A model generated the notes under the pieces. The model was not told the DNA's origin. It worked only from the letters and a program-made list of their open reading frames with translations, and did no database searches. From a virus: a DNA stretch of 64,000 bases. The number at the start of each line of letters is the position of its first letter. Position 1 is the first letter of the stretch. The translations under genes and the position numbers were made by a program. The stretch is from IMG/VR virus record IMGVR_UViG_3300012928_000001, positions 1-64,000 of that record; one strand, written 5' to 3'. Positions 12,165 through 38,363 of the stretch are shown here, one piece after another.

Positions 12165-12473
12165 ATGCGCTACTCCCAGACCGCCCCCACCAAATCCGAT
12201 CTACAAGCGATCCGCGCGCTTGGAAAGTCCCTCAACCTTTCAAGCCCGCTACGCGTGCGCAAAAACGCCGGATCTCTGCGTTACAGCGCCACGGTCAAGT
12301 GCCTCGATATCTCGACTGGCGAGGCTATCGCCCTCCTTGAAGGACTGAGCGCGCTGGGTTTTGACAGTGGCGTCCCGGGGGGCAAGTTTGATCTGGCGCA
12401 CACCATTGCGCAGACGAAAACGCATGGGTTTACCACCGTCAATCTACAGGTGTCGCGCTGGGTGCGCGGGTAA
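12165..12473 (+). CDS. Early array hypothetical protein
   Basis: ATG follows copy 15. Confidence 0.7.
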   Translation: MRYSQTAPTKSDLQAIRALGKSLNLSSPLRVRKNAGSLRYSATVKCLDISTGEAIALLEGLSALGFDSGVPGGKFDLAHTIAQTKTHGFTTVNLQVSRWVRG

Positions 12474-14268: not shown

Positions 14269-16323
14269 TTGGCCGGAAAGGCTATCACTGCCCTACTGTC
14301 CGTGTGCCCCGCGAGGGAGAGCTCGACGAGATTCGAGCGGAGGAACGCAGGTCCGAAGGGCTGCGGCGAATCGTCGACTTCTTCGCCTACGCGGACGAGC
14401 GCCAACATATTTCGATCGAAGATCTCGACAAGATCTGGGAGATCATCAGTGGCTATCAAAAGCCCGATCCTGACAGTTGATCGAGTGGTCGCGGACATCT
14501 TCGTCCAAGATTACGGCGACCGCGAACGCATCATCAACTGGCTTCGAGGATTCTACACAAGCGAAAAAGGCTCGCTACTGACAACGCGGGAACGTGTGTC
14601 TGTCGGGATTGAGTATCTGATTGCTAATGGGTGCATCGAGACCGGTGATCTAGTGTACCTCAACGATCACGACGCATACCGAAACTGGTCCATCACTGAG
14701 TTCGGTCAGCTAGTCTATGAGTGCGTCGAGACCATCGAAAGCATACGGAAAACATGAGCGCGCCTGATCCCGATCTCGTCGACCTGTCCGCGGCGATCGT
14801 CCTCGATGTCCGAAACCCAACCTGGGAAATCGGCTATCGGGCATGGTGGCTAATGCAGCTCGCCAATCACGACGGGGGCGTGCCCGAGGACCTGGCCGGC
14901 TATCTCGATATGCTCAAACGCAAGCGCACCCAAGATTGGGGCGACTTGCAAAGGATGTCGGAGTGGCGGCCCTATGAGTTCAAGCGCTCCCAAGCCTGCC
15001 ACGCGATGCGTCAACTACAGCTCGCCGACGCGGCTCGATGGGAGCGCAACACGTGGCTCGCAACTCCACTCACTGAGCCGGTGCTAGATCGGTGCATGCT
15101 GATCCTGTCGATCAAGAAAGCCACGCACACATGATTACCCCAACACACGAGATGGTCCTCATTAGTGAGGCCGTTCATCGCCTCACAGAGAAGACACCGG
15201 ACGCGCCTATCCTGCTTTTCTGGACCGTGCTCATTGGCGAGTTTCGGGTGATCTCGAATGTCTCCCACTGGACCACCATCACGCACGAAGCGTTGCGGCC
15301 GGTGATTGGCTACACCGACTTTTTCGGGGAGCGTCTAACGGCCTACCAAGTCCGCGCAATGGATCACATCACGCGGATCAACTTCCTCGGCTCACTCGAC
15401 GCGATGCGGGTCATCGAGCGAATCCCCCACCGACGCAGCGGCGACCCCCTCGACTCCCCGCCCCAGGAGGCATGGACCATCACGCGAATCGGGGAGCGGG
15501 TCATCGAGGCAATCGAGACAATCCAGGCCATCCGCAACGATGCCAAGGTCACGGCCAAAGCCGGCACCCCGGAGTGGGCTGTCCAAGCCGCCCGCGTAGC
15601 CCAGCAACGCCAACGCGACTACTCCGTGGCCTATGCCACCCGGGAAGAGCTGGCCCAAGCTAGCGCGGATGCCCTCGGCCAACTATTCAAAAAGTACTAC
15701 CACACAGCGATCAAACTCTAATGCTGAATCACGATCAGATCATCGTTGTGCTGACTGCTAACGACATCTGGGCACGTCATTACGCGCACTGGATTCACAC
15801 AGTCGTTCGGTTCCGTGTTTGGTACGCGATCAAAAATCTCATCCCGGTGTACCACGATCGGAATGTCCGAGGACTCGACGCGGCGAGCTTCCGCCCCCGC
15901 CATTCGCTGCCTACACGCAATGAGCATACTCTCGCCGACGACGCTTTCAAGACTATCGCCGACCTGCGCAAAGCTGGCCTGATCAAGATCGTACACATTG
16001 ATGATGAGCCCTTCTATGCAGTGACCGACCTGTGTAAGCAGGTCGCCGCCACGCTAAAGACCATCGACGCAATCAAGCGCGACACCCGTCGCGCCGAAGC
16101 TGACAAGCTCTGCGAGAGCATCACCATCGAAGTGGACGGCGAGGCCATCGCGTATCAGCTCTCGGACCTACAGCGACAACTACAGTTGCCGGAGAATCAG
16201 AGCGCCAATATGCAGACCATCCTGAATCAGACCATCCTGAATCAGACCGCACACCTGAAAGCACTAGAGCCCCGCTCAGCTCGACTCGAACAGTTCATTG
16301 CCGACTTGGAGAAACCCGAATGA
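14269..16323 (+). CDS. Four tandem winged-helix-like paralogs (?-14757, 14754-15134, 15131-15721, 15721-16323)
   Basis: Each has a W/Y-x-[IAV]-T-x-x-(G) wing motif followed by an ETI-x-[AS]I-[RK]-like helix; overlapping start/stop codons. Start of the first is uncertain. Confidence 0.6.
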
Positions 16324-18192
16324 TCGTAATCAAGATCGAACTCTGGCCCGCCAGCTCTCCCAACCCCGAAGCCAACGCCCACGAGATCGGGCGGATGCAC
16401 ATCTCGAACGATGGGACGTGCACCGACCCCTCCCGCGGCTCCTACGATGTCCGTGTGATGCGTCGAGGGAAGCGCACCCAAGTCCAGCGCACCGCCCACG
16501 TGAGGCACTTCCCGAGGCGCAGCTACAACGTGTGGCGTCTGGTCCTGCGGGCCCTCGCCCTCGCGTTCCCCGAGGACTCGACCGGCCGCGGCCTCGACCC
16601 CTTGCCCAACCTGAACGCCGACCCCGGCGGAGAGCTCCCCACCCCCGCCGAGTGCGAGCCATTCGAGGAGTAGAGACGATGACCATCGAGCCCGACGATC
16701 CAACACTCACCCACGATCTACCCCTCCCCGTAGGAACGCACTACGAAAACCCGCCGATCTGTCCGTGGTGTGAGCAGATCGCAGACGATATCCCGTGGGA
16801 TTGGAACCTCAGTGATGGCGAATCTGCTGAGGCCGAGTGCGCACACTGTGAGAAGCCAATCACCATCACGTGCAACATCTCGGTCACCTACTCGACCACT
16901 GCCCGGCGTGACCCTCCCGACCCCACGCCAGAAGAGGACCCCGACCGATGAGCCCAATCAAGTCCCCCCGCAACCCTCAGTGTGACTCATGCATCCACTA
17001 CACGGAAGGGCCTCCCGTCGACTGTGCAGCTGTCCGCGCTGATCATCCCTACCGCAACATCGCAGTTGTCCACAAACTGTGGTCCGCCGATAACCCTATC
17101 TGCCCCGACCACGATCCTGGCCCCATCATGATCAAGTCCAACACTCCCGCGCTCCCCAACTGCGAGAGCTGCTCCCACTTCGTCGACTGCTACTCAGCCG
17201 AAGCCGACGGATGGTGCTCCGACCACAAGCCCCACCCAGACCTCGACGTCAAAATCGAGCGACTCCGCCGGACCCTACACGGCTCCCCTCCCGAGCCCAC
17301 CGAGCCCAACACCTTCACCCTCCCGCTCCCCCGAGCTCGCTGGGCTTGGGACCCCCGAGGGCTCGCCGTCCTGGGAGTCTCGTGGGAGTCTCACTACATG
17401 CGCGGCATCGACTTGACCCTACACATCATCGGGTTCGAGCTCACGCTACACATCGGCCCACGATGATCATCACCGCCGCGGAGTATGTGCGAGTCGCGTA
17501 TCTCGCCCACAAAGAAGAGATCGAGCAAGCCCTCAATATCGTCGAGCACACGCTAATCGAGAAAGGCCGCATCGTATCGCAAACTCGCGTCAAAATCTCA
17601 TGTACTCCCGAAGCGCGAAGGCTAGTCGTCGCTATCCTGGAGTACCGCGGGTACAGGGTAGAAGTCGACGGAGCGTCTATGTACGTCAATCCAGACCCAT
17701 CCATCACCGCGGAGACCCTCGCGGCCATCATCGACGAGACCCCCGGCCCGAGCCCACTCCCCCCACGAGACGCAGATGCAGCCCCACGAACTAGCTAGCC
17801 GAGTGATGGATGTCGAAGCGTACAAAAACACAGAGTACATCGACACACTACATGTTCGGGTAGAAACACCAAACAATCGGACCGTCGAGGATTGCTTGTT
17901 TGATCTACCCGTCGACGCGCATTTTGAAGATTTCTACAACGATCGTCACTACTGGCGAACTCTCAGTTTCACCGGCCGCACTGCTGACGAAGCGCTACGC
18001 CGGGCGAATGCTTGGATACGTCGACGGGACCGACTCAGGGCAGGGACCTACGGGGGGCAAGGGTGGACCGAGAGGCCCAACACAACGGAGCGCGACCCCG
18101 AGTTTTTGCGCCGGCTCGGTGATGGTGCGGAGTATGACGACGGGGACGAAACTTGACCCGTCACCACTAGTCGGCACACACTCGTCAGGGTC

Positions 18193-19062
18193 ATGAGTGC
18201 CGATCCCAAGACGACGAGCGCCCCGCCTGTCCAAGCCGCACAACTCGGCCCGGTATCCGTGGGGCCGTCGCCCGACAAAGGGCTACTTTGCCAACCTGAC
18301 GATCATGCACAGTCCGATGTGTGCGAACGCGATGGGTGTGAAGTCGAAGAGACCGATTCGAACACACTCGCGGATGACTGGGATGGGGGTACCGACTGCC
18401 CCGCATGGGTGCTCGAAGGCGAAGCGAAGTACCTACGCGGCGAGCTCTCTTCGCAAGGCGCCGTCGCGCAGTTCGTCGACCGCCCGCGGACCACGGTCTC
18501 GTGGTGGGCTACCAAACGCGAGTGGACTACCCGCCGTGCGGCGATCAAGGAAGCGGCTGCCGAGCGCCTGCGCAAGAGCATGGACAGCGCGGCCACTCAG
18601 GATTTGGTCGACAGCTTCGAGGCCATCGACCACGACACGGTCAAGGCCGGTCGCTTCGCTGCCCGGGTCACGCTCACATTCGTGACGCAGGTCGCCCAAG
18701 ATCAAGCGAGGCACGTGCGCCAGAAAAAGCGCGGCGTGTACATCCCCCCGGCGTTCCCTTCGAGCTTCCTCGCCATCGCCGAGCGGGCCGACGCGCTGCG
18801 CCCTCAGACCTCCGAGGAGAGCGAGCAAAAGACCGCGCTCGACGAGATGGCCGAGGCCCTGAACCCTCGCCGTCGTGGTCGCACCGCGCTGGCCCTGCGC
18901 ATGCGCGAGGAGGAGGCCAAGCGAGCTCGCGCCGCCGGCATGATGCCGCCCACGGTGAAAGTCGAGCTCGCCACGGTCGCAAGCGAGGCGGAGATCGCCG
19001 AGGAGAGGCCCGACGACAAGGGGCCGGCTCCAGAGCTCGACAAAGATCGTGTGACTCACTAG
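18193..19062 (+). CDS. Probable terminase small subunit
   Basis: HTH pattern YLRGELSSQGAVAQFVDRPRTTVSWWATKREWTTRR followed by long helices, as in TerS N-terminal domains. Confidence 0.5.
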   Translation: MSADPKTTSAPPVQAAQLGPVSVGPSPDKGLLCQPDDHAQSDVCERDGCEVEETDSNTLADDWDGGTDCPAWVLEGEAKYLRGELSSQGAVAQFVDRPRTTVSWWATKREWTTRRAAIKEAAAERLRKSMDSAATQDLVDSFEAIDHDTVKAGRFAARVTLTFVTQVAQDQARHVRQKKRGVYIPPAFPSSFLAIAERADALRPQTSEESEQKTALDEMAEALNPRRRGRTALALRMREEEAKRARAAGMMPPTVKVELATVASEAEIAEERPDDKGPAPELDKDRVTH

Positions 19063-19088
19063 CCGACATGGGCTAGTTAAGTGGGCCA

Positions 19089-19661
19089 ATGTCTAGCACC
19101 GACAAAGACCCCACTCACCGCACCATCTCGATCAAGGTCGACAACTACACCGCCACGCTCGGCGCCCTCACCCTGCTATTCGCCCTGGGCATCGCGGCCA
19201 TCCTCTTCGGGTGCCCTCGGCCGGAGCAGCCCAAGCCGGAGCCCGACACGACCGAGGCGAGCGACAGCGACGGCGACGGGGCCGACGAGGCCGCCACGGT
19301 CACGGAGAGCGGCGACACGGCGCCCGCCGAGCGCCCGGACCCCAGCATCCCCCAGGGGCAGCTGTGGGGCCCGTGCTTCCCTGACGCGAGCTGTGAGCAG
19401 CCGGCCGGGCTCACCCTGACCTGCGCCGCGACCATCGACGAAGACGGGGTGACGGGGGCCATCTGCGCGCCCATGCTCGACGAGAGCATCACGTGCGCCG
19501 ATCCCTTCCTGACCTTCGGCCAGCCCGAGACCATCGAGGTGATCGAGCAACGGGGCCATTGCATGATCAAGAGCCCGTGTCCCTGGGAGGGGATGATCAT
19601 CGGCACGGGCTCCGTGTGCGTCTGGCCCTGGGCTCTCGACCGAGCCCTCGCGTTGCTGTGA
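19089..19661 (+). CDS. Cys-rich putative lipoprotein, myxobacterial style
   Basis: Hydrophobic helix ending LFGC, acidic D/G/S/T linker, Cys-rich C-terminal domain. Confidence 0.6.
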   Translation: MSSTDKDPTHRTISIKVDNYTATLGALTLLFALGIAAILFGCPRPEQPKPEPDTTEASDSDGDGADEAATVTESGDTAPAERPDPSIPQGQLWGPCFPDASCEQPAGLTLTCAATIDEDGVTGAICAPMLDESITCADPFLTFGQPETIEVIEQRGHCMIKSPCPWEGMIIGTGSVCVWPWALDRALALL

Positions 19662-19691
19662 CTCGCTGACCTGCTCGGCCTACGGTAGGGC

Positions 19692-19979
19692 GTGACCCCG
19701 CGCCCTGAGACCGTCGCCCTTTTGGAGTTGCCCGCATCGGCCTTTGCGCTGTTGCGGGCTCTTGACATACACAGCCCTCAAACGGGCAGCGGCCTAATGG
19801 CGTGGACTCGGGACGCGACATTCATCATTCTTGCAGAGCTTCGAGAGTTAGGCCTCATTCGGAATGACGCTAAGCCCCCGCGCCGCCACGCGCTCTGGCA
19901 AATCACTGAATTGGGCCAGCAGGTCTTTGCCGAAGCGAAGCCCATCGTCGAGACCCTCCGCGCGGTCAAAGAGGCCTAG
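19692..19979 (+). CDS. Winged-helix-like paralog
   Basis: LAELRELGLI...LWQITELGQQV...ETLRAVKEA; GTG right after a class-2 promoter. Confidence 0.65.
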   Translation: MTPRPETVALLELPASAFALLRALDIHSPQTGSGLMAWTRDATFIILAELRELGLIRNDAKPPRRHALWQITELGQQVFAEAKPIVETLRAVKEA

Positions 19980-20619
19980 CTGTGACTCGCATCGCCGAGC
20001 GGCCTACGGTAGGACCATGACCCCGATTCCCATCATGCTGATCCTCGACCGTTGCGGCGAGGGTACTCCTGATCTCTACTTTCTCACCGACCCGCCCGAT
20101 TGGCTCGTCGAGATTGACGGTGTGTACTTGGGCCAGTGGGTTGGCTCGGATGATCCGTCTCCCGAGCAGAAAGCCAATCACGAGCGACGGCAAGAGCTGT
20201 GTTTGCGGGTCTACACCGCAACCTGCGAGAACGCGAAGTACCTCGACGAAGACGCCGACCCGGAGCTGGCCCAGGCGTGGGTCAAACACAAGGTCGGGAC
20301 CGAGTTCACGCCCCCGCGCTCGACGGCTCGCTACTCGGTCCGCGTCGTGCGGACAGGCATCCTCCCCTAGGGCGAGCTCATGGCACACACGCCAGTATTC
20401 ACCGCCCGCGTTGTCGGGACCTTCCAGAGCAGCGAGGGCACGCTCGACAGCGCGGCGCGTCGACTCGCCACCGTCCAGTGGCGCAACGCCATGTGTGCGG
20501 CCGGTTATGTGTTTGTTGAGGAGACCGAGTTACAACTCTACGGCGGAGTCGAGGTCAAGATCGTCATGGAGCTTCCCACCTAGCTGTGACTCGCATACCG
20601 GATTGGCCTACAGTAGGGC

Positions 20620-20907
20620 ATGCAATCGGACAAGCCCATCGCGGCTATCTTCCTCGCGGCGCTGATCGTGTTCAGCGTCTCGGCCATCACCACTCTCGCA
20701 AGCTGCTCCGCGCCGGACAAGTCCCGTGAGACGCTCGAAGCGGCCGGCTACAAGGACATCGAGATCACGGGCTATCGCCCGCTCATGTGCAGCGAGGACG
20801 ACAGCCTCAGGACCGGCTTCACGGCCAAGGGCGCCAACGGGGCCCGGGTCTCCGGCGCCGTGTGCTGTCGGTACCTGTTCAAGGGCTGCACGATCCGCAC
20901 CGACTGA
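20620..20907 (+). CDS. Small Cys-containing phage lipoprotein
   Basis: LASC lipobox; LEAAGYKDIEITGY...CSEDD...TGF...VSGAVCC...KGCTIR. Confidence 0.65.
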   Translation: MQSDKPIAAIFLAALIVFSVSAITTLASCSAPDKSRETLEAAGYKDIEITGYRPLMCSEDDSLRTGFTAKGANGARVSGAVCCRYLFKGCTIRTD

Positions 20908-21646
20908 GGAACACACCATGTCCAACTACCACCCCACGACCGCCGCCGAGATCTTCCTACCCACCCTGCGCGACCCGACCATGGGCCTAGTGGCCACCAT
21001 GGTCGAGCTCGACCAGCTCATGCGTCGCCGCCCCGACATGCTGCGCACCGACGCCCCCCTGCCGGCGGTCCCCTTCGCCGACCTGCGCGTCGTCTGGGTC
21101 ACCCCCGACGACATCACCACGACCAAGGAGCGGACCCCCGGGGGCAAGACCACGCGGACCGTCTCCATCCCCATCGGCAAGAGCGACTCTCACCCCCGCG
21201 TCGTCGAGCTCCAGACCTTCTCAAACGAGATGACCCTCAACCCCATGACCGCGGTGCTGTGGAGCACGGCCGAGGAGATCATCAAGGCCGTGTCCGCCGA
21301 GCTGTATACCGTGCTCGTCGAGAGCGACCCGGAGCACGCCAACGACTGGCTCACCCAGTTCGAGGGCATCAACCTGCGGCACGAGCAGGGCAAGCCCGTG
21401 ACCACCCTCGTGCTGTGCCTCGACTCGCTCGACATCCTGTGGGGGACCAAGGGCAAGGAGGCAGGCCCCCCGCTCGCGGTCATGACCCGCACGGCGCTCA
21501 GCATCGGGCTGGCCTGAGTAGCTCATGCCCGAGCTACCCTGCCCCCGCGACGATCCGTTACCGCACCGACCCGGGCCCCCGGAGCACACCGCTCCGGGGG
21601 CTTTGTTGATCTGTGACTGACATCCCAGATTGGCCTACAGTAGATT

Positions 21647-22021
21647 ATGCAGATGCACAAATCAGTCCGCACCGCGTTGGTCCTCACCTTCGCCGCCGCG
21701 TGTACCACCACGGACGTCGACGGCGGCTACTCGGACAGCTCCGTCCCCGTCGACCCGTACGTGCAGCGCCTGCGCAATAGCAACGACTACCTCGGGTTCG
21801 CCGTGTTCGAGAACGGCGAGATCGTCGGCTTCGTCGACGGCGACGGCAACACCACCGAGGCCCTCGGGGGCGAGTGCTACGGCGAGCGTCTGTGCTGCGA
21901 CGTCGTCACCCTGGGGTGCTTTTGCGCCCCGGACAGCGAGCACAACGCGGTGTGCCCCTCGGGCTCCGTGGCGGCCCCCGAGACCACGGGGAGCCAGGTC
22001 GACGCGGGCGACGAAGACTAG
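21647..22021 (+). CDS. Putative Cys-rich lipoprotein
   Basis: AAAC lipobox; flanked by two near-identical terminator+promoter junctions. Confidence 0.6.
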   Translation: MQMHKSVRTALVLTFAAACTTTDVDGGYSDSSVPVDPYVQRLRNSNDYLGFAVFENGEIVGFVDGDGNTTEALGGECYGERLCCDVVTLGCFCAPDSEHNAVCPSGSVAAPETTGSQVDAGDED

Positions 22022-22469
22022 TCCGCGCTCGAACACAAAGCCCCCGGAGTGGTCATGCTCCGGGGGCTTTGTTGATCTGTGACTCGCACTCCCGATTGGC
22101 CTACAGTAGATCGATGCACTCGCTTGCTGTCAGCACCGGACCCAACGACGTCCACCCCGAGCACGCTCGACAGATCATGCGCCACCGCAAGAGTCTGCCC
22201 CGCATGAGCTCCGCCGACATGCACACGGCCTGGGGACTCGTCGATGAGCTCGCCTGCACATACCGTGCGGTCGATACAGTCCACGCGATGCGCATCGCAA
22301 AGGTGCTCGTCGACTCGCGCAACATCGGCAAGGCGGGCTTGCGGACGATGCAAAAGCTTCGGCCAGCGATGCACGCGATCCGGTGGACGGGCAAAGCACA
22401 GCACCCGGCGCCGCCCGTCCACGGCAACCCGGGGATGATCCTCGCCCTCCGCCGCGCCGGGTGGCTCAA

Positions 22470-24461
22470 GTGAGCATCTACCCCGCCGGGGCCAAGCTCA
22501 CCCGAGGAGAGCTCGCAGCGCTCCCCCTGGAGCGTCGCCGGGCCCTCGCGGTCGCGTGCCTCTCGTCGTGGCACATCGCCTCTCAGAACGCTTTGGAGCT
22601 GCTCCGTCTGTGCGTATATCGCAGCGAGCACGGCGTGAGTGTGGCGCTCATCGAGTCGGATCTACTGACCACCGAGACCCGCGCCGCGCAGGCCATGAAC
22701 ACGCTACAGCGATTCGAGCTTGTCCGGCTTGGGCCTCACCCCATACGGGGTTACCCGACTCTATGGGCGACCGAGGAAGGACAAGCCGTGTTCGAAGCGG
22801 TAGAGACAATCAAGGCAATCAGGAACTCATGAGCGCGCAAGCCTACACTGAGGAAGAGGCCAAACTGGCCGAGGTCTTGCTCGATTACCCTACAGCGATT
22901 GCGCTGTTCCGTGCGCTACTGGACAACCCGGGGGTTAGCGGTAGCGCCCTCGTGTTGACCGCCTATCACGGTCACCGCCGCGACATGGCGAAGCAAATCA
23001 TCGCCGCAGCTGAGTTCGGGCTCATCGAGCCGATCGACTCTTCCCAGGGCCTCGATTGGTACAAGAATCGATGGCGCATCACGACGAAGGGCTATCGTGT
23101 TTGGGACCTAGCGCTCATGCTTCGATCCGTGAGGGATGCATGAGGCCGAATCACGTCAACTTTGTTGAATACCTACTGCACGAGGGCCTTGTGTTCTCGG
23201 TGCTCGAAGCCATTGCACGGCCTCACTCTAAACCCCCGACAGGGACGCATATTGCAATAGCCTGCCGGACAACTAGCGTTCACGACAACACGAAAGTCGC
23301 AACCGCAATGGAAGGCGCCCAGCAGCTCGGGCTGATCACCCAAGTCGGTCCGCGTTCCTCGAATTGGTGGCGGCGCCGATGGGAGCTCACCGCGGAGGGG
23401 CGCGCCGCCTTCGAGGTTGCGGAGACCCTCCGCGCTGTGAGGGACGCATGATGCTTTGGACCATGCCCACTGACCCCCAAAAGTGCGCCTCGCTATCCAT
23501 CGCTGACGCGGTGACGCCGTGGCTCGACCAAGCGCGCGAGGGCTGGGCCCACGGGCACGACTTGACCGAGATCATCGCCCGGATGCCCTACACCCAAGCG
23601 CCGCGCGACGCGGACGATTTGCTCGTTTGGTGGCACCACAACGGTCTGGTCCGCCCGTCGGATCTCAGCTGCCCCACGACGTCACAACGCACGCTCGGTC
23701 ATGGGGGACGGCTCATGGGCTACGGCGGGAAGGGCAAGCCCAACGGAGAGCACCCACCGACGTGGCACCATTGGAAGATGTGCGGCCCTTTCTGGATTCG
23801 CGGATACTCCCCATGAGCGATTACCCCTATACCGAAAAGGACGCAGAACTGGCCCGACAGATCGCAGCCGATGGGCCCATGTTGCGCACGCTCTTGAAGC
23901 TCGCGCAGCACGGGCCCGGCGAAGCGTGGGTTGCCCACGACCTCGCCCGGAGCTTGCGACACGTGCACGGCATAACCCAACAATGCCTCCACGGCGCACT
24001 CAATGAGCGGCTCGTGGTCTTTGACGACCGCGGCGAGAGCCGATGGTGGCGTCACCTGTGGACCATGACACGGCGGGGGCGCGCCATCACGGAGCTCGCC
24101 GGGACCCTCGCCGCCGTCTCGCAGGCTGCCCAGGATCAGCTCGATGGCCGATGACTCCGAGCTCGCTCGCGCGAGCGAACTGCTCACCCGCACCAACCTG
24201 CACTACGCCGCATTCATGATGCGCATGCTTCGTGCGCTCAAAGAAAAGCCAGCATCTGCGTCTGACCTACAATACGAAGTGGTCTGTTCAGCTCGCACGA
24301 TTGAGGCGACGCTCAATAGCGCAGTCGGCTATGGGTTGATCGTTGGAACGGTCGCACACGTGTCGGTGTGCAATACGATCTACACGGTCTATGGGCTGAC
24401 CGACTTTGGTCGCACAGTTACTGAGCTCGCCGAGATGCTGATTGCTGTGACTCGCGCCTGA
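22470..24461 (+). CDS. Cluster of five winged-helix-like paralogs (22470-22832, 22829-23143, 23140-23451, 23813-24154, 24144-24461) plus one unrelated ORF (23448-23816)
   Basis: Shared (G)L[IV]...W/Y-x-[LIMA]-T-x-x-G...[TM][LI]-x-[AS][VI] C-terminus; translational coupling. Confidence 0.65.
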
Positions 24462-25184
24462 GATTGGCCTACGGTAGATCGATGCAAGACCACGACCCCT
24501 ACTCGACCCCGCGCTACTATGACGCTCTGCTGTCGGAAGACGACCGCCGCAAGCCGGTGCGCCCGCGCAAGCGGCCCGCTCGCCGCGAGCCCGAGCCCGC
24601 TCCCGAGCCCAACGCCTGGGAGAACGTGAAGGGTGGAGCGCTCAACTTGATCATCGGTTGCCTCGCCTTCGTGTTGGTGGTCGGGACCCTCGGCGCCGCC
24701 GCGGGCGTGGGGAACTACGCCTACACCGCGATCACTGGGGAGTGCTTCGGCCGATGACCGCTGAGGATCGCCCCTACAGCTCGACCTACCCGCATCCCAC
24801 GTGGGGCAAGTCGACGCTCACCCTGCAAGAGGGCCTCGATCTCGTCGAGTCCAACCCACGCGGCGTGATCGAGGCATGGCTAGAGCTGCTCGACGAGACG
24901 CCACAGAGCCAGCAAAGGGCCGGCGTCTTTGACTCCATCCGCGGCAGCGACGGGTGCACCCATTGCGCGATGGGCCTGCTGTACGCAGCCCTCGGCATCC
25001 CGAGCTGCAAACCGATGCTGACAATCGAGGTCAACGGGATGCTGCGCAGCTTCGGCATTCAGGTGTCCATCGTCATTCGGCACAACGACCGGTTGAACGC
25101 CCCATTCGACGGTTCCCGCTACGCGTCGGCCGCGGACTACATCCGCCGGCGCCTCGCCGTCTACGACAAAAAGCAGCTCCAGCA

Positions 25185-25691
25185 ATGATCACTCATCGCT
25201 ATCTCTTTCTCGACATCGACGGAGTGCTCAACTCCTCGATCTACCACAATCGGGTCACGTTCCTGCGCAACGCAAAGTGGCCTGAGATCAACGGCGTGCC
25301 CGTCCGGCTGGAGCCGTCCAAGATCCCGCTGCTCAATCAGCTGGTCCATCCGAGTGTGCAGATTGTGCTGAGCTCGATGTGGCGAGTGAAGGGGCACGCG
25401 CAGGTCGAGTCGTGGCTCCGCCACCTGGGATTCACCGGCCGGCTCGTCGACGCGACCGCGCTCGACATCACCGACCCCCGCCGCTGCCGGGGAAAGGAGA
25501 TCGCCGCGTGGCTCAAAGCGGCGGGCCACGAAGAGCGCGACTGGGGCGGGGCCGTCCGCTTCGCATGCCTCGACGACGATCGCCGCATGGAACCCGTCCG
25601 GCCCCACTGGGTGCCCGTTGACAGCGTCGACGGGCTCACCGGTAACGACGTCGAAAAGGCCCTCAAACTTCTGGCCCTGGACAAGGTCTGA
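25185..25691 (+). CDS. HAD-superfamily protein (phage RNA-repair-associated HAD type)
   Basis: FLDIDGVLN, IVLSSMWR, RGKEIAAWL, CLDDD, GLT motifs. Confidence 0.85.
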   Translation: MITHRYLFLDIDGVLNSSIYHNRVTFLRNAKWPEINGVPVRLEPSKIPLLNQLVHPSVQIVLSSMWRVKGHAQVESWLRHLGFTGRLVDATALDITDPRRCRGKEIAAWLKAAGHEERDWGGAVRFACLDDDRRMEPVRPHWVPVDSVDGLTGNDVEKALKLLALDKV

Positions 25692-25894
25692 TGCGGTTCT
25701 CTGAGGCTGAGGTGAGGGGTGCGGGAGCACTGCTCGGCGCTATCGCGTGTGCGTGTATCGCCGCGCATGCGTTCGAGAGTGGCGAATGGTCGTCTGGGAT
25801 CAACGCGACATTCGTGTGCCTGCTCTACGGTGCCTGCGCGGTGGCGTGGCATCGCAAGCTGTGACTCGCACACACGATTGGCCTACGGTAGATC

Positions 25895-28800
25895 GTGTCG
25901 CGGTCACCACCTGATCCAATCGGACAAGCGCTCGGGTTCATGGCCGTGTGGAACGGCCTTTTGTTCTCGTGGCGCCCGCAGCCCATGAACAAGTGGGCGG
26001 AGTTGGTGGCTGCTCCGCCCCTGCCATTGGACATCGATTTCACAACGCAACAGTGGGACCGGTGGGTGCATAATCACACCACTGGGATCTACATCGCGTT
26101 GACGGTGGTCGACACCATGCACCTGTGTACCGAGAAAATCGACTACGGCAGGTACGGCCCCAACGTCTGGCGATTGTCTGATAGGGGAATCGAGTTGGTA
26201 CGGGCCAACAATCTAGACGTGATTGCGGCGATCAAGCTGGACGGACGAGTCGGTAACAAGCCCCACTATGTTTGGGATTCGCGCTTGCAGTCATACGAGC
26301 TTTCACGGAGTGAACCGAAAGATGGATGATCACGGATACGAATGCGGAACGTGTGGCTACGTGCCCACCTACGAAGAGCTCCACAACGGCACGTGCCCGC
26401 AGTGCGAGCTGAATCGACAGATTGATCGCGCACGCGAGGAGACCGAGAATGGAGACTGAGCCCGACGAGGAAATCGTTACGGTCGCCATGCCGGCGAGCA
26501 TGGCCCGACTCGTGGCGTCGCTACTACTAGCATTCGACCTGTACGAGGCGGCGGAGGGCTTCGCAGAAATGCAACGGCCGTGCATCTTCGTGAGCGCAGA
26601 CGTTTCGCCAGACCCGGATACAGAGTGTAGGGAATGGTTTATTCGCGCTCCCAAGAATACATTCGCGGTCGGTGACTTGGTCATGGTCCGTCGACGGGAT
26701 GGAAGCAACCCGGTGATCGTGCAGCTCACCGGCCTAGTGCGCACGCGTCGGCTGTACGAATGGTACACATTCGAGAACGTCTGAGATGGCAAACACAACC
26801 GAAGTCAAGTGCATCGAGACCCTTACGCACAACGACGCTCTATTTGATCGTGAAGTGCTGCGCAAGCTGTCGGGATTCCAGCTGACCGCTACTGCGCTCA
26901 CGGCCTGCATGGATGAAGAGTTCCTAGACGCATTCTCCGCCGATGCTGTGATCGATGCTTTGGGCAACCTGCGCGTCCTCGGTCTGGTCCGACGTCGCGG
27001 TGACGAATACGTCGTGACGAAAAAGGGCAAGGCGGTGCTCGAGGTTGTGAACACGCTCTGTGCGGTGCGAAGCGCCGCCGAGACCTTGCCTGGGGGCTCG
27101 CTGTGAACGTGGGTCGCGGCGATCCTCCGGGGCTTTGGCGTCGGATCAGCAGTACCCCGGTCGCGCTTGGGTTGCTGACTCCCGCTGATCGGTATTTCAC
27201 ATTTCCACGGACCGGTGAGCTACCTGCTCACGCCGGGGAGCTGCTAAAGTGCGCCCGAGATCCGTGGGATTGCGTTATCTGGCGTCGCGAGGAGAGTGGG
27301 GAGCTGCTAAAGTGCGCCCGAGATCCGTGGGATTGCGTTATCTGGCGTCGCGAGGAGAGTGGGGCCTATAACGTTTTGGTCTTCTTTGGCGACACGGAGC
27401 TCGTTCCTAGGTCGGCGCTGCGTTTGGCTCAGTGCGCCGAGCCTGATGTTTACGAGCTCACCGACGAAGCGCGGGCCGACGCCCTCGCGCAAAACTTCGA
27501 TGTCCTCGCCGCGGTTTTTCTTTCAGATGGCCTGTGACTCGCACCGCCGACCGGGCTACAGTAGATTGTCGCCGGTCGAGCAAACTGCGACCGTGGCCGA
27601 CCTACCTCCTAGGCTTGGGTTGGGTTCCAGCGGCCACGTAAGTCTCGGATTTCGATCCTCCTTCCAACACGACGCGTCCGAGACTAGAACGCTCCCGGGA
27701 ATGGTCCCGGGAGCGTTCACCTTTTGAGGGGACCAAAACAAATGAACGCGTACACCATCCAAGAAATGATCTCATCTGCCGAAGTGCTGCAAGGGCTCAT
27801 GGTCACGCCTGGACGTGTCCTGCATTTGTGCACAGCCGGAATGGTCTCTGGCGAGCTTTGGGATTGTGCCCCGGTTCAACTTCGTCTCAACGACAGAACG
27901 TCTCTCGGTCAGGCCAGCCAAGCCATCGGGGGTGCTCCCTCCAAATGGACCTACATGGGGCCGGTGAGCGCGACTGTACTCGATGTGCTCGGCTTTTCTC
28001 CCGAGTCTGCGCCTCCCGGATTTGTCGCGGTGGAAAGCACGGTCCACGATATCGGACGCACCCGATTTCAGGGCCCGCTGTATGTGCTCACGGATGCTGG
28101 CCGACAACGTGCGCAAGAGCAGAACTTCGATACACTCGCGGCCGTGTTCCTAGCTTAGGCCTGTGACCCGCACGCGCTTTCGGCCTACAGTAAAGCGCAT
28201 GCGGACCATCATCCAAAAGCACACGATCATCGAGGTTCCCGGCAGGCCCTACGATCCGCACACGCTCAACGCGGAGATGATCGAGCGGTTCGCCGCGGAT
28301 CACAGCGACGACCCTGCACCGCTCTGGAAGCTGCGCATGATCGCCGGGTTCCCCATCGTGCTGGAGTGGCTCGCTAGGGTGCTCTCGCCAATCGTGGGCG
28401 CGTCGTGGCTGTACTTGATGGCGTATCCGCTGCTCCCGTGGTGGCTCGCGGGGGGCATGTTCGCGTTCGCAGCATGGCCGACCCTCACGGCGCACGTCGG
28501 GCTCATGGGCGAGCTTCGATCTCTCAAGACCATTCGCTACAGGACCCCTGAGGATGACGAAAAGTACGATCTATGACCGTCTTTCAGCGCTGTTTTCGGA
28601 GGTTCACGATATCACCGCTGAAAGCGTAGACCTGTCGCACCCTTCTCCACGGGTTAGCGACCAACAACTCGTGCTCGGGATGCTGGCTTTGCCTGATACG
28701 GTGCTGCTAATGCTCGACACGCCGAAGCTGGACACCTGCCCTATTCGGCAAGAGATCGAGCCCACGTCGATGAGAGGCCCTTGGGGTTACGTGGACATCG

Positions 28801-30234
28801 CTAGGATTCCGCGCACGCTCGCGGAGCGCCTTGTCGATAGCGGGTACTTTCGAGGCAAAGAAGGCTTCGGGCGCTACCGGTTGCGCGCTAGCGTGCGCAG
28901 GTATTGTCGCCAGTATAACTACGATGTCCTCGCGTCGATCCGCTTGCAGGACCACCCCGATGGATGAGAAGAGCATCGCCCTCGGGCTACTCGCTAATCC
29001 GGCGCATCAGATTTTTGCGGGGTTCAGTTGGTGGCTCATCGCAAACGTCGAAACGAATACCACAGTTATGCGCATGTCCGATAGCCTATTTAAGGTACTT
29101 GGCGCCGACGGTTGGCTTGAGCGTGACGAGGAATACCGCGAAGTTTGGCGGCTCGCGCCGGAGCGGCGGGCCGAGCTCGTCGAGCAAAATCTTGACGTAC
29201 TGGCCACAGTTCACCTGATGCAGGATGTCGATTAGTGGATCATCTCAAATACCGGGGGTTCATGATAGCGCTTGGCCTACTAGCCAAGGGTGGGGGTGGG
29301 CGTATACGGTGCTCCGGTTCCGGCGATGTCGTGATTCTTCAACCGGCCGAAACGGGGGTCCACTGCCGTGCGCTCGCTCTCGCTACACGTGAAGTGTTTG
29401 CCGATCTGTGCGATAGCGGTTGCTTGTCTGAACTCGTCGCTAAACCTGGGGTGTACGTAATCACGGAGCATGGTAAGAAGCTGGCGCGCGAGCTCAATGC
29501 TGACATCGTCGCATTGCTCGCCAAGGAGTCGGCCGGCCAAACTATGCTCGAGTGCGGCGGACGTGCTTGGCCGCCGGAGTCGGAGGATCCGCCGGAGCCG
29601 GATCCCGATTTTCGGTGATCGCCTGTGACTCCCTCCGCCGTTCGGCCTACAGTACATCGAGGGCGGCGCGGAACCTGTCTGCTCTGCGCTGACCTCACGG
29701 GGGTGAGAGTGTCTCTCTCTCTCTCTTTCTCTCACTGCCCAACCGAGGGCCCGGGACGCCCCTCCCGGGCCCTCACCTATTTGAGCCATGCACGATCTCA
29801 GCCCAGCCATGATTCAGCAGCTCTCAGTTGCCTTCGAAAAGCCGCCGCTTTTGGAGATAGGTACTGATTCAATCAAGGCATGGGAAAAGCTGGTCGAACT
29901 TGGCTACTTGCTCCCGATCTATGCCCCGGCAAAGTGGCCCGACGAGGAGTTTCTCGCGGTCGAGCTTTGCGAGGGCGGGGTGTGGGAAAATCATGTCCAG
30001 CTGCGCCCGACCATGCGGGCCGAACGGTGGCGCGATTCGATCGAGACGGTCGCCGCAATCGCCCTCATGGACCGCCAACCCTATCGCGTACTGGCAAAGA
30101 CCGCGCGCTTTGGGATTGACTACGGCACCGCGGAGATGCGGGCTCTCGCGCACGCGAGCGCATCGATCCGCGCGCAAATCGAGATGACCCATGAGAGGCT
30201 TCGCCAGTTCGCTGATCGGTGGGGGAAGCTGTGA
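25895..30234 (+). CDS. Cluster of winged-helix-like paralogs (25895-26329, 26786-27106, 27103-27537, 27742-28158, 28554-28967, 28960-29235, 29235-29618, 29788-30234) with interspersed ORFs
   Basis: Mostly Y/W-x-[LIV]-[TS]-x-x-[GA] followed by N-[FLYA]-D-[VTI]-[LIV]-A; 26786 and 29788 have the ET/NT-type helix. Confidence 0.6.
27235..27360 (+). repeat. Exact 63-bp in-frame tandem duplication
   Basis: 27235-27297 equals 27298-27360; bounded by GGGG microhomology; duplicates GELLKCARDPWDCVIWRREES. Confidence 0.95.
27567..27726 (+). ncRNA. Candidate sRNA 1 (anti-Shine-Dalgarno loops)
   Basis: Class-2 promoter at 27533, no credible ORF, stems CGTGGCCG/CGGCCACG and AGTCTCGGA/TCCGAGACT, 14-bp terminator stem + ACCTTTTG. 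Confidence 0.65.
29659..29783 (+). ncRNA. Candidate sRNA 2 (antisense to class-1 early leaders)
   Basis: Class-2 promoter at 29624, three hairpins, last one GAGGGCCCGGGA/TCCCGGGCCCTC + ACCTATTTG; loop regions contain CTGTCTGCT and GTCTCTCTC. Confidence 0.7.
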
Positions 30235-32645
30235 CTCGCGCCTGCCCTCGGCCTACAGTAGGCCGTGAGCATGTCCCCCACAAAGCCTGACCATCTCGCG
30301 GTCTTCCGGTCGAGCCACGCAAGCGTGCGCCGAAAATACTACGCTGTCGATCAAGGCGTGGGAGAGCTCCCCCATGTCTGCCACGACCACCCCGTGACGG
30401 GAGAGCGCCGCATCACGGAGAGCCTCGAATCGCGCGAGTTGGCCTACATCGTGTTGCATGGCTCCGCCCGAAAAACTCTGGCCCCCAAAGCGCGCGAGCG
30501 GTTGACCCTGCGCGCGCGGGCGGTCGAGCTCTGCGGCATCGAGCACACCGTGCGCACCGCGGGCGGATGGATCACGACCACGATCGTTTTCGCCGATGGC
30601 AAGTTCGAATCCGCGGAAGCCGAGTACTTCCGTGAGCAAGCTCCGAATCAACACAGTGAACAAACGGTCGTGTCATGATCAAGCCTGAGCCTCCCAGCTT
30701 TACGTACCCGCTGACTCCCGAGCACGCGCAGTCAATCGCGCGCTTTGTCCTGCACAGCTTCGAGCGAGCAACCCTGCATCCGCGTCTGGTCTCGATATTC
30801 ACCGACGGGCTCGTCGGCGCCGGAGATCTCGCCGAGATCCGCGAGCGCTTGCTAGAGCTCATGGTGGACAACATCGATCTCATCGTCACGGCTAACGGCG
30901 CGACGCTTTCCCCCGGGTCTCTCGTCAACATCAAGAAGCACCTGCGGAAAGTCCTGCGGGCCCGTGCGAGCAAAATCGATGAGGGCTTTGTGCACGATCT
31001 TCGAGTCTTGCACTGATAGCTGTGACCCGCATCGCTGCACGGCCTACAGTAGGACACCATGAGCAAGTCTCAGTTCACCTACACACTCCGCGGACGCAAG
31101 TTCCGGCGCCTGGACCCCCCAGCCATCATGGCCAAAGTCGACGGGCGCACGTGGCCGCGAAAGGTCCCGCTGCTCGACGCGGAGGACATCTACACCGGCG
31201 CCTACGCGTCCCCGGAGAACCCGGAGTGCCGGTGCCTGCTCGGCCACGCGCGGCACGTCTTCGGCGCCAAGACGGCGCGGCTCAAGGCCGTCAAGGTGGC
31301 GCTTGTCAACCGGATCCGCGACATCACCGACGCCGCCCCCGTCGGTGGAGAGTTCGGCACGATCACGAACTTCAACGACTGCTACGCGTCCCCGGGTCTC
31401 GTCGCTCGGGTGTGGAATGAGACCATGGCGGATCTCGGCTACACCCAGACCGTGAGCGCCTGATGTTCCGCAACGGCTACTACATCGTCGACAGTTCAGA
31501 CATCTACCGGCTGCCCACACTGCACACGGGCGAGTCGCTAGAGCTCGACCTCTCGAAGCCGCGCGGCTTCTACATGGTGCGCGTGATTCAGACTGCTCAG
31601 TTGCGCCACCGCAGTCAGCACGAATACCGCGAGTCCTACATCGGCGATGGCTGGGCTCAAGACTACCACGAGGTATACAGCTATCGCGCTACCATCATTC
31701 AGTCGTGCGATGAGAACACCTTCAAGGTGGCAGCAATGCTGCACCGCGGGGACAAGGTCTTTACCGACGTGCAGCTGCCCGCGGTGGTGTTCAAGCGCAA
31801 TGGGTCTCTCACGACATTTCGCACCGCCACCGGCCACGACATCATCCATCGGCATGGATTCTTGACGCCGGACCCGATCGCCCGGAGCATCGGATACTAC
31901 ATGATCAACATCGACGACATGGGAGAGATCTCCGTCGGCGACAAGATCAGCGAGACCGTGTTCATGGCTCATTACGCCATGTACCAAAAACTGGTCGGAC
32001 TCAGGATCCCTGACTACGATTCAGAGACACACAACCTCGAAGCGCGCGAGCGCATCGAGGCCGCGGGCAAGCGCAAGCAAAAGCCCGTGCAACCCAAGCC
32101 CCAACCCCAACCCCAACCCGAGATCAAAGACAACGCGGAGACCAAGCCCATGAGCAAGCCCACCGAGACCACCACCGACCCCAACCCCTTCGGCGACCTC
32201 AAAGACGCCTTCACCGAGGGCGCCAAGGATGGCACCGCCGCCGGCTTCGCCCAGATCGCCGGCAAGTCCCTGGCCCGCCACGCCGGCCGGAGCCTGGGCA
32301 TCCCCTCGACCTTCTTCGAGGGCCCGCTCGCCGCCGCCTTGCTCGGGGTCCTCGCGCCGCTCTTCATCATCGCGCTCGGGTGGCTCTGGGCCGACATGCC
32401 CCGCCGCGCGTGGCTGCTGGAGCAGAGCAACCGGGCCCTGCGCGGCGCCGCGACGCAGCACTCCGCCAAGCTCATCGAGTTCGCGGGCGGGTGGCTCGTC
32501 GAGCTCTTCTCGGCCGTCGACGGCGAGCCCCCGAAGGGCAAGGACAAGGGCAAGCCGGCCAGCGACGACATCGACGACACGGGCCCCCACGACTCGCCCA
32601 ACTGAACCTCTCGCGCAGCTCATGGATGAGCGCGAAGGCCATCGC

Positions 32646-32678
32646 AAAGAGCCGCCCACGGATGGGCGGCTCTTTTTT
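32646..32678 (+). terminator. Intrinsic terminator
   Basis: AAAGAGCCGCCC-ACGGAT-GGGCGGCTCTTT-TTT, directly upstream of a class-2 promoter. Confidence 0.8.
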
Positions 32679-32855
32679 GTGTCTCGCACTCGGTTTTGGC
32701 CTACGGTAGATCGACATGATCGAACTCTGGAATCGCTACCTGCACGACCCGACCGTGTTTGTGGAATACACATTCTGCGGCGGTCTGATCTTGGTCTTTG
32801 TCGCCTGCGCGCTGCGGTCGGCCTGGGTCGAGCTACTCAAAAAGGCGGGGTGGTG

Positions 32856-33308
32856 ATGGCTGACCTGCTCGTCGAGGTCACCACGGCGCCCCAGGCCCCG
32901 ACCAAGGGCACGCCGCTCGCCGCTGGGTGGGACTGCTACGCGCCCACCCCCGGCTGCGTCCGGCCGGGCGAGACCGCCGTCATTCCGCTGGGGATCAAGC
33001 TGGCCCCCTCGATCGGCCTGACCCGCGACACGGCGCACGGCCACGACTTCATGGTCGAGCTGCGCGGGCGGTCGAGCCTCGCCGCTCAGGGCGTCCTGAC
33101 GCACGTCGGGACCATCGACGCGGACTACCGCGGCGAGGTCTCGGCCATCGTCACCAACCTCGGCGGCGCCCCCTTCGAGTGGCGCCGCGGCGACCGGGTC
33201 TGCCAGCTCGTCGTGGTCCCGCTGATCCCCGTCGAGATGCGCCGCGTCGAGCGAGTCGAGGCCGACACGGAGCGCGGCGACGGAGCCATGGGGAGCACGG
33301 GACGATGA
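32856..33308 (+). CDS. dut: dUTPase (trimeric type)
   Basis: AAGWDC, GRSSLA, GTIDADYRGEV, GDRVCQL, TERGDGAMGSTG: all five motifs. Confidence 0.95.
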   Translation: MADLLVEVTTAPQAPTKGTPLAAGWDCYAPTPGCVRPGETAVIPLGIKLAPSIGLTRDTAHGHDFMVELRGRSSLAAQGVLTHVGTIDADYRGEVSAIVTNLGGAPFEWRRGDRVCQLVVVPLIPVEMRRVERVEADTERGDGAMGSTGR

Positions 33309-33873
33309 GCGACCCGACGGCGCCCTCGAAGCTGCCCGAGACCTACGCGCCCCACTCCAGCCCCGCCCGCGCGTGGCGGCTCCTGGAGTGGCACGCCCGC
33401 GGGCGCCTGCTCGTGCACGGGGCCGAGGCCTATCGCTGCATGCACGGCGACGGCTACGATCTCAAAGACGTGATCAAGGCCATGGTCGAGGCCAAGATCC
33501 TGGTCCCGTGCAAGGTCGACTTGACCGGCACCGCGACGTTCCGCGGCGGACGTTTGGCGTTGCAGTTCAAGAGCCCAAAGCACATCGCCAAGGCGCCATG
33601 GTGCACCGACCATGCAACTTTCTGGACCTACACGCCCGGCAACCCGGTACCGATGATCTCGCCGCACACGCCCACGCGGGCGCAACGAATCGAGGCCTAC
33701 GAACGCGCCACCGAGCAAGCCCTCTCCGTGCGTGACGCGTGCAAGCTGCTCAACCTCTCCGTGGTCCCCACCCAAGTGCAGCCGCACTCGCGTGCGGTGA
33801 TCCTGGACGCGGCATCCATCGAGCACGCGGAGGGCACCCCGTCGATGTTGTGGGAGTGGCTCCGGGGCGGGAA

Positions 33874-34959
33874 GTGATCCGCGACGCCGCGACCTTTTGG
33901 TACTGCTTCGGCAGGCTCCCCGATCACCGAAAGCGGATGGTCGGGGAGCTCGCTGCTAGGGGCCGGGTTGAGTGGTCGCTACAGCGCGACTTTCTTGGCG
34001 ACCATTTCGGCGTTGAGGTTGTCTCTCGCGGGTCGGTGATTAGTGCGGTGCTCATCATCGAAGCGTCCCCACTACTGCGCGAGCTGTCCGATCAAGTCTT
34101 GACCATGATCGCAGTACTCGACTCGTGACTCGCATGCTCGATCGGCCTACGGTAGATCGATGGCAAAGCCCGCCATAGCACTACGCATACGTCGCACCCT
34201 GATTGTGCTCGGCCAAGGCGGCGAGCTGCGCGAGATAATCCGCCTCCCGAAAGACACCTACAGGCGCAGCGCCAACATAGCGTATTCGTTCTACGGCAAA
34301 GATAGGACGCTGAACACCTACGCGCTTTTTCTGGACGGCAACCCGTACGCATTCAAGGGCAAGCCGATAGAGCTCGGCCACAAAGTGCTCAGCATCTTGC
34401 TCGAACTGGACCTGATCACGAACGAATGGCCAGAGTTTGCGTGCTCGAAAACCTACGTGATTTCAGATGCCGGGCGGGCCCTCATCGAGGCGACCAACAT
34501 GGACGTGATCGACGCGGTGAAACAGCTATGACCAAAGGACCCACAAAGAAAGATCGAAAGGCTCGGGCCCTGCGCAAGCGATTGCAGGGTCTACCGGATG
34601 ATCATATCATGGTACTGGGCGGGCTGCTGGCATGGTATCCCGTGCTGTTGCCTGAGTCGGCGGGCACTGTTGCCGAGGCCCATGAGTACCTGACGCGCGG
34701 GTACTCGCCCATTTGCTGGCCCCACTACAAGACCTCGCTCGGTGCGCTGTTCTCCCGAAATCTGTTGACTCTCGCACGGTGGACTGTCGAATATAGGTTC
34801 GACGATTGGACCACAAAAGAGCGGCGCTTTTCAGTTGAGCTATGCGATGATTTGGCCGAACTGGCGAAAGCGCGTAACTTCGATGTGCTGTTTGCAATCA
34901 AGCATGGAGAGTCACGCGACGGCGTGAGCAGGTACATGGAGAGTCACGCGACGGCGTGA
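33874..34959 (+). CDS. Three further paralogs of the wHTH/C-terminal-helix family (33874-34128, 34160-34531, 34528-34959)
   Basis: YVISDAGRALIEATNMDVIDAV; NFDVLFAIK; VLTMIAVLDS. Confidence 0.5.
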
Positions 34960-34966
34960 GCAGGTA
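34903..34966 (+). repeat. Exact 32-bp tandem duplication
   Basis: CATGGAGAGTCACGCGACGGCGTGAGCAGGTA x2, followed by CAT. Confidence 0.95.
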
Positions 34967-35231
34967 CATTGGGAAAACGGCCGTACGATGATCGCAACAT
35001 GGGACCAAGCGCGCGCGACCTTTGAACACATGATGGATTTGCGCGAGCAGATGGCCGCCGTCAAAGCGGTGATTGCTGATCTCTACTTTTGGGAGTGGCG
35101 CGAACGCAGACGGCTCAATGCGCAACTGAACCGGCTAGCCGGTTTGGAAGCGGAATGCGCACGCATGTATTGGTGGTCGATCCGTCAGCTTACCGTGTGA
35201 CTAGCAGGTCTATTCGGCCTACAGTCATTCG

Positions 35232-36014: not shown

Positions 36015-36025
36015 CCCACAAGCCC

Positions 36026-37837: not shown

Positions 37838-37842
37838 TCCGA

Positions 37843-38346: not shown

Positions 38347-38363
38347 TGTGCTACCATGATTAG

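Follow-up and report, generated by a model that had tools for sequence, protein, structure and literature searches.

Small winged-helix proteins are common in phages, which normally carry only a few such regulators each, and DNA binding is the default expectation for the winged-helix fold. PadR-s2 regulators are winged-helix proteins of about 105 amino acids; their wing follows the motif G(P/R)RKYYx(L/I)TxxG, and the single helix at their C-terminus carries a conserved Trp (PMC3506622). In the dimer, this helix packs against its counterpart and helix 1 of the other subunit to form the interface (PMC3506622). Among jumbo phages, one survey found 1-15 specific transcription factors per genome, with a median of 2, and Bacillus phage G was described with about 35 zinc-ribbon copies in addition to Myb-type helix-turn-helix (HTH) factors (PMC7824862). 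In this study, we analyzed a stretch of 64,000 nucleotides of viral DNA (hereafter the window; positions 1 to 64,000 of IMG/VR record IMGVR_UViG_3300012928_000001), which covers the first 64 kb of one contig with a length of 105,163 bp. A family of small genes lies between 14.5 and 35 kb of the window, all on the plus strand, and no member was found elsewhere in the 105-kb genome by iterated profile searches and an own-genome search. We read these genes, with a probability of roughly 0.6, as the lineage-specific expansion of one small winged-helix family without sequence relatives, whose products would bind DNA as dimers in the manner of PadR-s2. An earlier note made from the sequence alone had counted about 20 paralogs; the family was confirmed, while the firm count came to 16, with 18 probable and up to 20 possible members. 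The firm members are 10 genes of subtype A and 6 of subtype B, two more subtype B genes are probable, and one or two candidates are doubtful. The number of paralogs, which that note had called unusually large for a phage, indeed exceeds the survey range given above.

Seeding of the family was unbiased and consisted of an all-versus-all BLASTP comparison of every six-frame open reading frame (ORF) of the genome. It yielded a core of five genes (14485, 22470, 22829, 23140 and 23813, named by their first positions in the window) and one pair of subtype B genes (27103 and 27742). Hidden Markov models (HMMs) were iterated against the real ORFs together with reversed decoys. The HMM built from the core converged in three rounds on 10 subtype A genes with E-values (E) of 1e-16 to 1e-35; the matches spanned nearly all of the 105-position model, and the best reversed decoy scored E 5.3. 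A separate profile search of the genome recovered the same 10 genes. For subtype B, an HMM of the last 45 residues, seeded by the BLASTP pair, converged on six genes with E 1e-12 to 7e-18 and a best decoy at E 0.85. No decoy in any of these searches scored better than E 0.2. The two probable subtype B genes, 28554 and 34528, were each compared by hhalign with a full-length six-gene B profile from which both were excluded, and each reached a score of 25.5 (P ~0.0014-0.0015), compared with maxima of 16.6-17.9 for their shuffled sequences and 8.5-18.4 for five neighboring control genes. Neighbors at 22113-22473, 23466-23816, 26422-26784 and 30675-31016 were not members by the B profile. Mutual homology, on which the earlier note had staked its proposal, was thus borne out by the decoy-controlled HMMs and the profile comparison, which demonstrate paralogy within each subtype.

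The motif-bearing ORFs were found at the places given in the earlier note, with their C-terminal motifs readable in the translations; only the proposed start of the first gene at 14269 gave way to a likelier one at 14485. A strict regular expression for the wing and helix had 10 matches in the real six-frame translation but none in the reversed translation or in 100 shuffles, which rules out chance motif matches. The codon-usage score was positive in the assigned frame and negative in both shifted frames for all 19 genes scored, so that non-coding ORFs can likewise be dismissed. Across the conserved region, identity at the first, second and third codon positions was 0.49/0.58/0.33 in subtype A and 0.46/0.51/0.31 in subtype B. 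Because third positions were the least conserved, selection has acted on the protein and not on the DNA, and on the same ground we rejected the idea that the helix is conserved as DNA, whether by gene conversion or by a Shine-Dalgarno sequence within it. Two family genes do carry the ribosome-binding site of the next gene in their last codons.

Subtype A aligned as a single domain of about 100 amino acids (HMM positions 2-105). The divergent N-terminal part, which had been set apart as a domain of its own, belongs to this one domain since the alignment runs across all of it. An AlphaFold model of the product of 23140..23451, computed from the ten-sequence alignment, reached a predicted local distance difference test score (pLDDT) of 87.7 and a predicted template modeling score of 0.79. 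The modeled topology was four helices, H1-H2-H3-H4, followed by a beta-hairpin and, at the C-terminus, helix H5 of 18 residues. With its three-helix core, recognition helix and hairpin wing, the model places subtype A among the winged HTH proteins of the MarR/PadR/ArsR clan. When the A profile was searched against PDB sequences, two MarR-family chains were matched with E 2.8e-4 and 9e-4, followed by tens of weaker MarR, ArsR and PadR chains, and the MarR alignment covered the recognition helix, the wing and the following helix. Foldseek returned 23 PDB matches to the model at E <= 1e-3. The top matches listed were almost all winged-helix regulators and included MarR proteins (ST1710 and others), F-93 of the archaeal virus SSV1 (1tbx) and the PadR-s2 proteins 5dym and 4esb, with E 1.5e-4 to 1e-3. 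The template modeling (TM) scores were about 0.65-0.72 when normalized to the small targets and 0.44-0.54 when normalized to the MarR targets. Among predicted viral structures, Foldseek found only generic small HTH or winged-helix proteins. The PadR/MarR-type winged helix suggested from the motif alone therefore holds for subtype A, by the profile match, the model confidence and the structural neighbors together.

Conservation was measured on the subtype A alignment and mapped onto the subtype A model. The last wing strand (b3) and H5 both had a mean pairwise identity of 0.33, with mean BLOSUM62 scores of +1.9 and +1.5, respectively, compared with an identity of 0.13-0.14 and a BLOSUM62 score of about 0 for H1, H3 and the recognition helix H4. 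H4 was hypervariable and kept only its buried hydrophobic positions. Thr84 was invariant and Gly87 nearly so; both cap H5. The C-terminal helix itself was conserved on its hydrophobic face and on a second face (E92, E95/T96 and A99), which suggests that it is packed on two sides. A variable recognition part joined to a constant helix had been proposed, and the constancy of H5 against a hypervariable remainder agrees with that proposal; the variable part, however, is the winged-helix core and not a separate recognition domain.

The evidence for subtype B is thinner, and whether the two subtypes share an origin has to be weighed with it. The earlier note had described two subtypes of the C-terminal helix, and both are present, but the hhalign alignment of the A and B profiles brings them together as one motif, with E-T-[LI]-x-A-[VI] of A aligned to D-[VT]-[LI]-x-A-[VI] of B. 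That alignment scored 23.5 (P 0.0035) at the homologous C-terminal position, the wing strand and helix, whereas 200 column-shuffled B profiles scored 7.9 +/- 1.7 with a maximum of 14.3, so that the observed score is about 9 standard deviations above the null. B could instead be an unrelated family of small proteins that ends in a similar strand and amphipathic helix, in which case only the ten A genes would be winged-helix genes. The hhalign probability of 9%, the cross-subtype HMM results (E 0.009 for the B model on an A gene and 0.78 for the A model on a B gene, near the best decoys at 0.24-0.8), the lack of any match of the B profile among PDB sequences and a poor subtype B model all speak for two families. 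We nevertheless judge this distinctly unlikely, given the score over the null and the residue-by-residue correspondence of the motifs, and given that an A gene (26786) sits within the B cluster under the same promoters. The B sequences also have a helix ending in G-[LWC]-[LI] ahead of the hairpin, as in A, and the eight aligned B sequences share a hydrophobic N-terminal motif (consensus ALGLLA) with a glycine invariant in 8/8. Weak structural matches of the B model were nearly all to winged-helix domains or chains, both with Foldseek (top rows at E 0.17-1.3) and with VIA-align (Z 4.4-6.6), and the ESM Atlas model of 34160 had HTH/PadR-like structural neighbors with TM 0.47-0.59. A common origin of subtypes A and B is therefore likely by sequence comparison, but not proven.

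On this background of paralogy, fold and conservation, the products of at least some of the genes would be dimeric regulators that bind DNA, a function that we favor slightly and that draws on the analogy with PadR-s2. Repeated and mostly local gene duplication would have expanded the family, and the two conserved parts, the last wing strand and the C-terminal helix, would serve as the structural and dimerization element, as in PadR-s2, while the hypervariable recognition helix and wing would set the binding specificity of each paralog separately. As dimers on DNA, at least the members with basic wings would control transcription of the phage or its host during takeover; for those whose recognition surfaces are acidic, the ligand may have changed. 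Several observations weigh against this reading. The whole-protein isoelectric point (pI) was 4.6-7.9 in 15/19 members, and in subtype A the net charge was -2 to +1 for the recognition helix and -3 to +3 for the wing. Only about four subtype A members had a clearly basic wing, and some were acidic on both DNA-facing elements; such charges are atypical for MarR/PadR repressors. Across the family, 19692, 23140 and 34160 are examples of genes with a basic wing, and 14485 and 28960 of acidic ones. None of the 19 proteins reached the gathering score of any Pfam family, with sub-threshold matches nearly all to HTH or winged-helix families, and no candidate operator, including the palindromic promoter core described below, was tied to any paralog. 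The subtype B model, computed for 28960..29235, was unreliable (pLDDT 56.7), and the link between A and B consists of about 24 aligned columns. Several members are acidic, so a role in protein binding is a real, though less probable, alternative. The winged-helix core could be a diversified protein-recognition surface, with the C-terminal helix docking the paralogs onto a common partner such as host RNA polymerase, a protease or a phage factor, so that varied host proteins would be neutralized or redirected. An adaptor or anti-defense arsenal of this kind, which we consider unlikely, would fit the many members without basic recognition helices or wings, the conserved residues on both faces of H5 (polar E92, E95, T96 and R101 included) and the combination of a hypervariable surface with an orphan family, which is typical of conflict genes. 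It is met, on the other side, by the absence of likeness to known anti-defense proteins, with no match in PHROGs, by the absence of an evident partner gene, and by the closest structural analogues, in which dimerization is a full explanation for such a conserved, single helix at the C-terminus. The high copy number might also suggest abundant, non-specific proteins that coat or organize the phage DNA, and not sequence-specific regulators. Architectural DNA proteins are usually basic and conserved, however, whereas most members here are acidic to neutral, and their hypervariability falls precisely on the helix that faces the DNA, which makes this explanation very improbable. Returning to dimeric regulators, all paralogs keep the same putative C-terminal dimerization helix, and for that reason the 16-19 paralogs could conceivably form a combinatorial network in which free heterodimers pair different recognition helices; this is speculative and we regard it as quite improbable.

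The first subtype A gene, 14485..14757, encodes an acidic protein of 90 amino acids (pI 4.6) and was found by the HMM (E 1e-19), by the own-genome search and by the strict motif, with a coding score of 0.37; its start is uncertain because 14449 and 14485 are both GTG. The genes 15131..15721 (196 amino acids, the domain being extended at both termini; HMM E 2e-16, strict motif) and 15721..16323 (200 amino acids, with a C-terminal extension; HMM E 2e-17) follow, and the extension of the latter holds a 15-bp x2.4 tandem repeat at 16213-16248. Between these and the first gene lies 14754..15134 (126 amino acids), a possible degenerate member whose sole basis is an hhalign match to the A profile (P 0.0064); the alignment falls at the homologous wing strand and C-terminal helix, and the gene was absent from the HMM iteration results. 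The gene 19692..19979 encodes 95 amino acids (HMM E 1e-22) and had only a sub-threshold Pfam match, to Replic_Relax. Five genes then share one operon: 22470..22832 (120 amino acids; BLASTP core, HMM E 5e-27), 22829..23143 (104 amino acids; BLASTP core and HMM, with ATGA overlaps with the adjoining genes), 23140..23451 (103 amino acids; HMM E 1e-35), which is the member modeled above, 23813..24154 (113 amino acids; HMM E 6e-30) and 24144..24461 (105 amino acids; HMM E 7e-29), which matched Pfam HVO_A0261_N at 6.7e-6, below the cut-off. The tenth gene, 26786..27106 (106 amino acids; HMM E 6e-27), is the one inside the subtype B cluster and had sub-threshold Pfam matches to HTH_45 and HVO_A0261_N.

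Subtype B begins with 25895..26329, which encodes 144 amino acids from a leaderless GTG start (HMM E 2e-16). The BLASTP pair, also found by the HMM, consists of 27103..27537 (144 amino acids) and 27742..28158 (138 amino acids). The first of the pair contains a perfect 63-bp x2.1 tandem duplication at 27235-27364, which repeats 21 amino acids in frame; it arose very recently, unless it is an artefact of the assembly. The probable member 28554..28967 (137 amino acids) had the leave-out hhalign score given above (P 0.0014, shuffled maximum 16.6); its N-terminal LG-L motif is present, and it scored weakly with the short B HMM (E 3.6). It is followed by 28960..29235, the shortest member (91 amino acids; HMM E 6e-17), whose AlphaFold model is of low confidence, and by 29235..29618 (127 amino acids; HMM E 1e-12), which had a sub-threshold Pfam match to DUF4364 (0.022). 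Farther downstream, 34160..34531 encodes a basic protein of 123 amino acids (pI 9.1; HMM E 2e-15), the member with the HTH/PadR-like ESM Atlas neighbors, and 34528..34959 is the second probable member (143 amino acids; HMM E 0.07). A perfect 32-bp x2.1 tandem duplication at 34903-34969 covers the 3' end of the latter; as the unit is not a multiple of three, it shifted the frame in which the tail is read and moved the stop codon. In addition, an ORFan of 148 amino acids lies at 29788-30231. Its N-terminal helix ends in E-L-G-Y-L, a second helix with the sequence E-T-V-A-A-I is internal, and it may be a further, rearranged member, with borderline hhalign values (P 0.03 against B and 0.13 against A). 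By BLASTP, the closest paralogs were mostly neighbors, which indicates local tandem duplication. The internal tandem duplications of two members are perfect and hence recent.

Family genes either have starts coupled to the upstream stop by ATGA or GTGA or begin a few bases past a copy of a promoter-like motif, here called class 2. Its form is CTGTGACTCGCA, 11 nt, GGCCTAC[AG]GTAG, and the genome holds 24 copies. The 20 copies on the plus strand are at window positions 3532-42493 (including 19680, 20004, 22101, 25883 and 34147) and at genome positions 98921 and 101309; the 4 on the minus strand are at 46806, 80273, 84127 and 86375. With up to 2 mismatches allowed, the 12-nt core matched 28 times in the window against 3.2 expected. 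A start codon lies 3-8 nt past most copies, which points to leaderless messages, and the motif is probably a conserved, sigma-70-like, leaderless promoter. Six copies precede operons with family genes, and most of the family genes lie behind such copies. On the plus strand, putative class-2 promoters were located at 19656..19688, with a start codon 3-4 nt later and thus a leaderless mRNA, at 22077..22109, ahead of the operon with five subtype A genes, at 25859..25891, ahead of gene 25895, at 28161..28193, ahead of the operon 28199-29618, and at 34123..34155, ahead of gene 34160. At window 24445-24477, the last codons of 24144..24461 (A-V-T-R-A) double as the -35 element of the next class-2 promoter. 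The core CTAC[AG]GTAG is a 9-bp palindrome, extended to 15 bp in some copies, and would suit an operator for a dimeric winged-helix protein. An exact-pattern scan for the class-2 promoter in viral contigs gave no match.

The record is classed by the database as a complete virus with direct terminal repeats, and its G+C content is about 64%. A comparison of window 1-345 with genome 104717-105163 showed the contig ends to be 100% identical over a translated stretch of 41 residues, which agrees with that classification. The contig encodes a large terminase, a portal, a major capsid protein and a tail sheath and thus belongs to a contractile-tailed phage (myophage). The paralog region is the non-structural early/middle part of this uncultured 105-kb myophage, upstream of the terminase, and the family genes in it add up to about 7.3 kb of coding sequence. 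The other genes of the region are mostly ORFans, except for a protein with a HAD_SAK_2 domain at 25185-25688 (E 2e-21) and a dUTPase at 32856-33305 (E 2e-23); HAD_SAK_2 is the HAD phosphatase of 'Swiss Army Knife' RNA-repair proteins. Ahead of the region, window 1700-12300 holds a large repeat family at the DNA level, in which ORFs of both strands (36 on the plus and 25 on the minus strand in six-frame translation) have short blocks in common with 60-95% identity; it appears to be an array of promoters and leaders.

Relatives of the family were sought in protein and phage collections. A word-indexed search of 5.8 billion proteins with the A and B profiles found only the phage's own proteins, and an exhaustive HMMER search of 1.84 billion representatives with the A profile found the phage's own proteins and generic ones, with no orthologues. 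The generic matches mostly consisted of 2-6 matched stretches, so that their summed scores inflate the E-values, and Pfam assigned winged-helix domains of MarR, PadR, HxlR and Fic-like_C to nine of them. Distant relatives of the phage traced in IMG/VR through the major capsid protein (50-55% identity) had neither the family nor the class-2 promoter, and the 60 metagenome loci (0.6 Mb) traced through the large terminase (<=41% identity) lacked both as well. One contig among the relatives examined, 62 kb long, extends for about 45 kb upstream of the capsid gene. On one metagenome contig, Ga0209755_10000254, the terminase was 31% identical and the fetched locus had a G+C content of 39%. Against the phage collection, a megablast search with window 30000-40000 gave no match, and tblastn with the tail sheath gave at most about 28% identity. 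The mutual homology of the members, confined to one lineage in these searches, points to a lineage-specific expansion of paralogs.

What is new here is the sequence-orphan family; the winged-helix fold and the pattern of paralog expansion are known, and the notable features are the copy number in a mid-sized genome and the common helix. The copies outnumber the whole transcription-factor complement of any jumbo phage in the survey cited above. If the paralogs have distinct targets, they would amount to a library of binding specificities that nature has built on a single scaffold, and the family is a possible handle on host takeover by an uncultured phage. If they are ordinary redundant regulators, the main gain is one more winged-helix family for the catalogue. 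Should the combinatorial network prove true, a 105-kb phage would possess dozens of DNA or protein specificities, a regulatory or counter-defense code; to our knowledge, a phage-encoded combinatorial code has no described precedent in bacteriophages.

Compared with known systems, the family is most like PadR-s2 in architecture. The subtype A model shares the size of about 100-110 amino acids and the winged helix followed by a single C-terminal helix with bcPadR1/BC4206 (4esb), LmrR and CdPadR_0991 (5dym); the Foldseek TM scores of 5dym and 4esb were 0.64-0.69 both ways, and the wing-strand motif [WY]-x-[LIV]-T-x-x-G is present in the phage family. The phage proteins differ from PadR-s2 in that none of the 19 matched Pfam PF03551 at E <= 1, their wing lacks the basic G(P/R)RKYY segment, H5 has no conserved Trp (a single Trp occurs among the ten members, at position 91), and an extra N-terminal helix is present. 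They also differ in number, with 16-19 paralogs in one phage, whereas PadR-s2 is typically one regulator beside its target gene. MarR proteins (ST1710 3gfj, 3bj6 and MepR) gave the best profile match (E 2.8e-4) and the best Foldseek matches; however, they are about 140-150 amino acids long with a larger dimerization and ligand domain made of N- and C-terminal helices, whereas the phage domain is about 100 amino acids with one helix past the wing. No match to Pfam PF01047 or PF12802 (MarR, MarR_2) at E <= 1 was found among the 19 phage proteins, and the conserved basic wing residues are lost in most members. The archaeal-virus proteins F-93 (SSV1, 1tbx) and STIV F93 are likewise virus-encoded, about 90-100 amino acids long and built as a MarR-like winged helix with a C-terminal helix, and SSV1 F-93 ranked eighth in the Foldseek search with subtype A (TM 0.64/0.72); they have no detectable sequence relation to the phage family and are single archaeal-virus genes, not an expanded family of a tailed phage. 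In the multiplication of one small putative DNA-binding module within a single phage genome, the family is similar to that of Bacillus phage G, but the fold is different and the genome is about 105 kb compared with about 500 kb in phage G. The family described here occupies about 7% of its genome, and its most conserved element is the C-terminal helix that the paralogs have in common.

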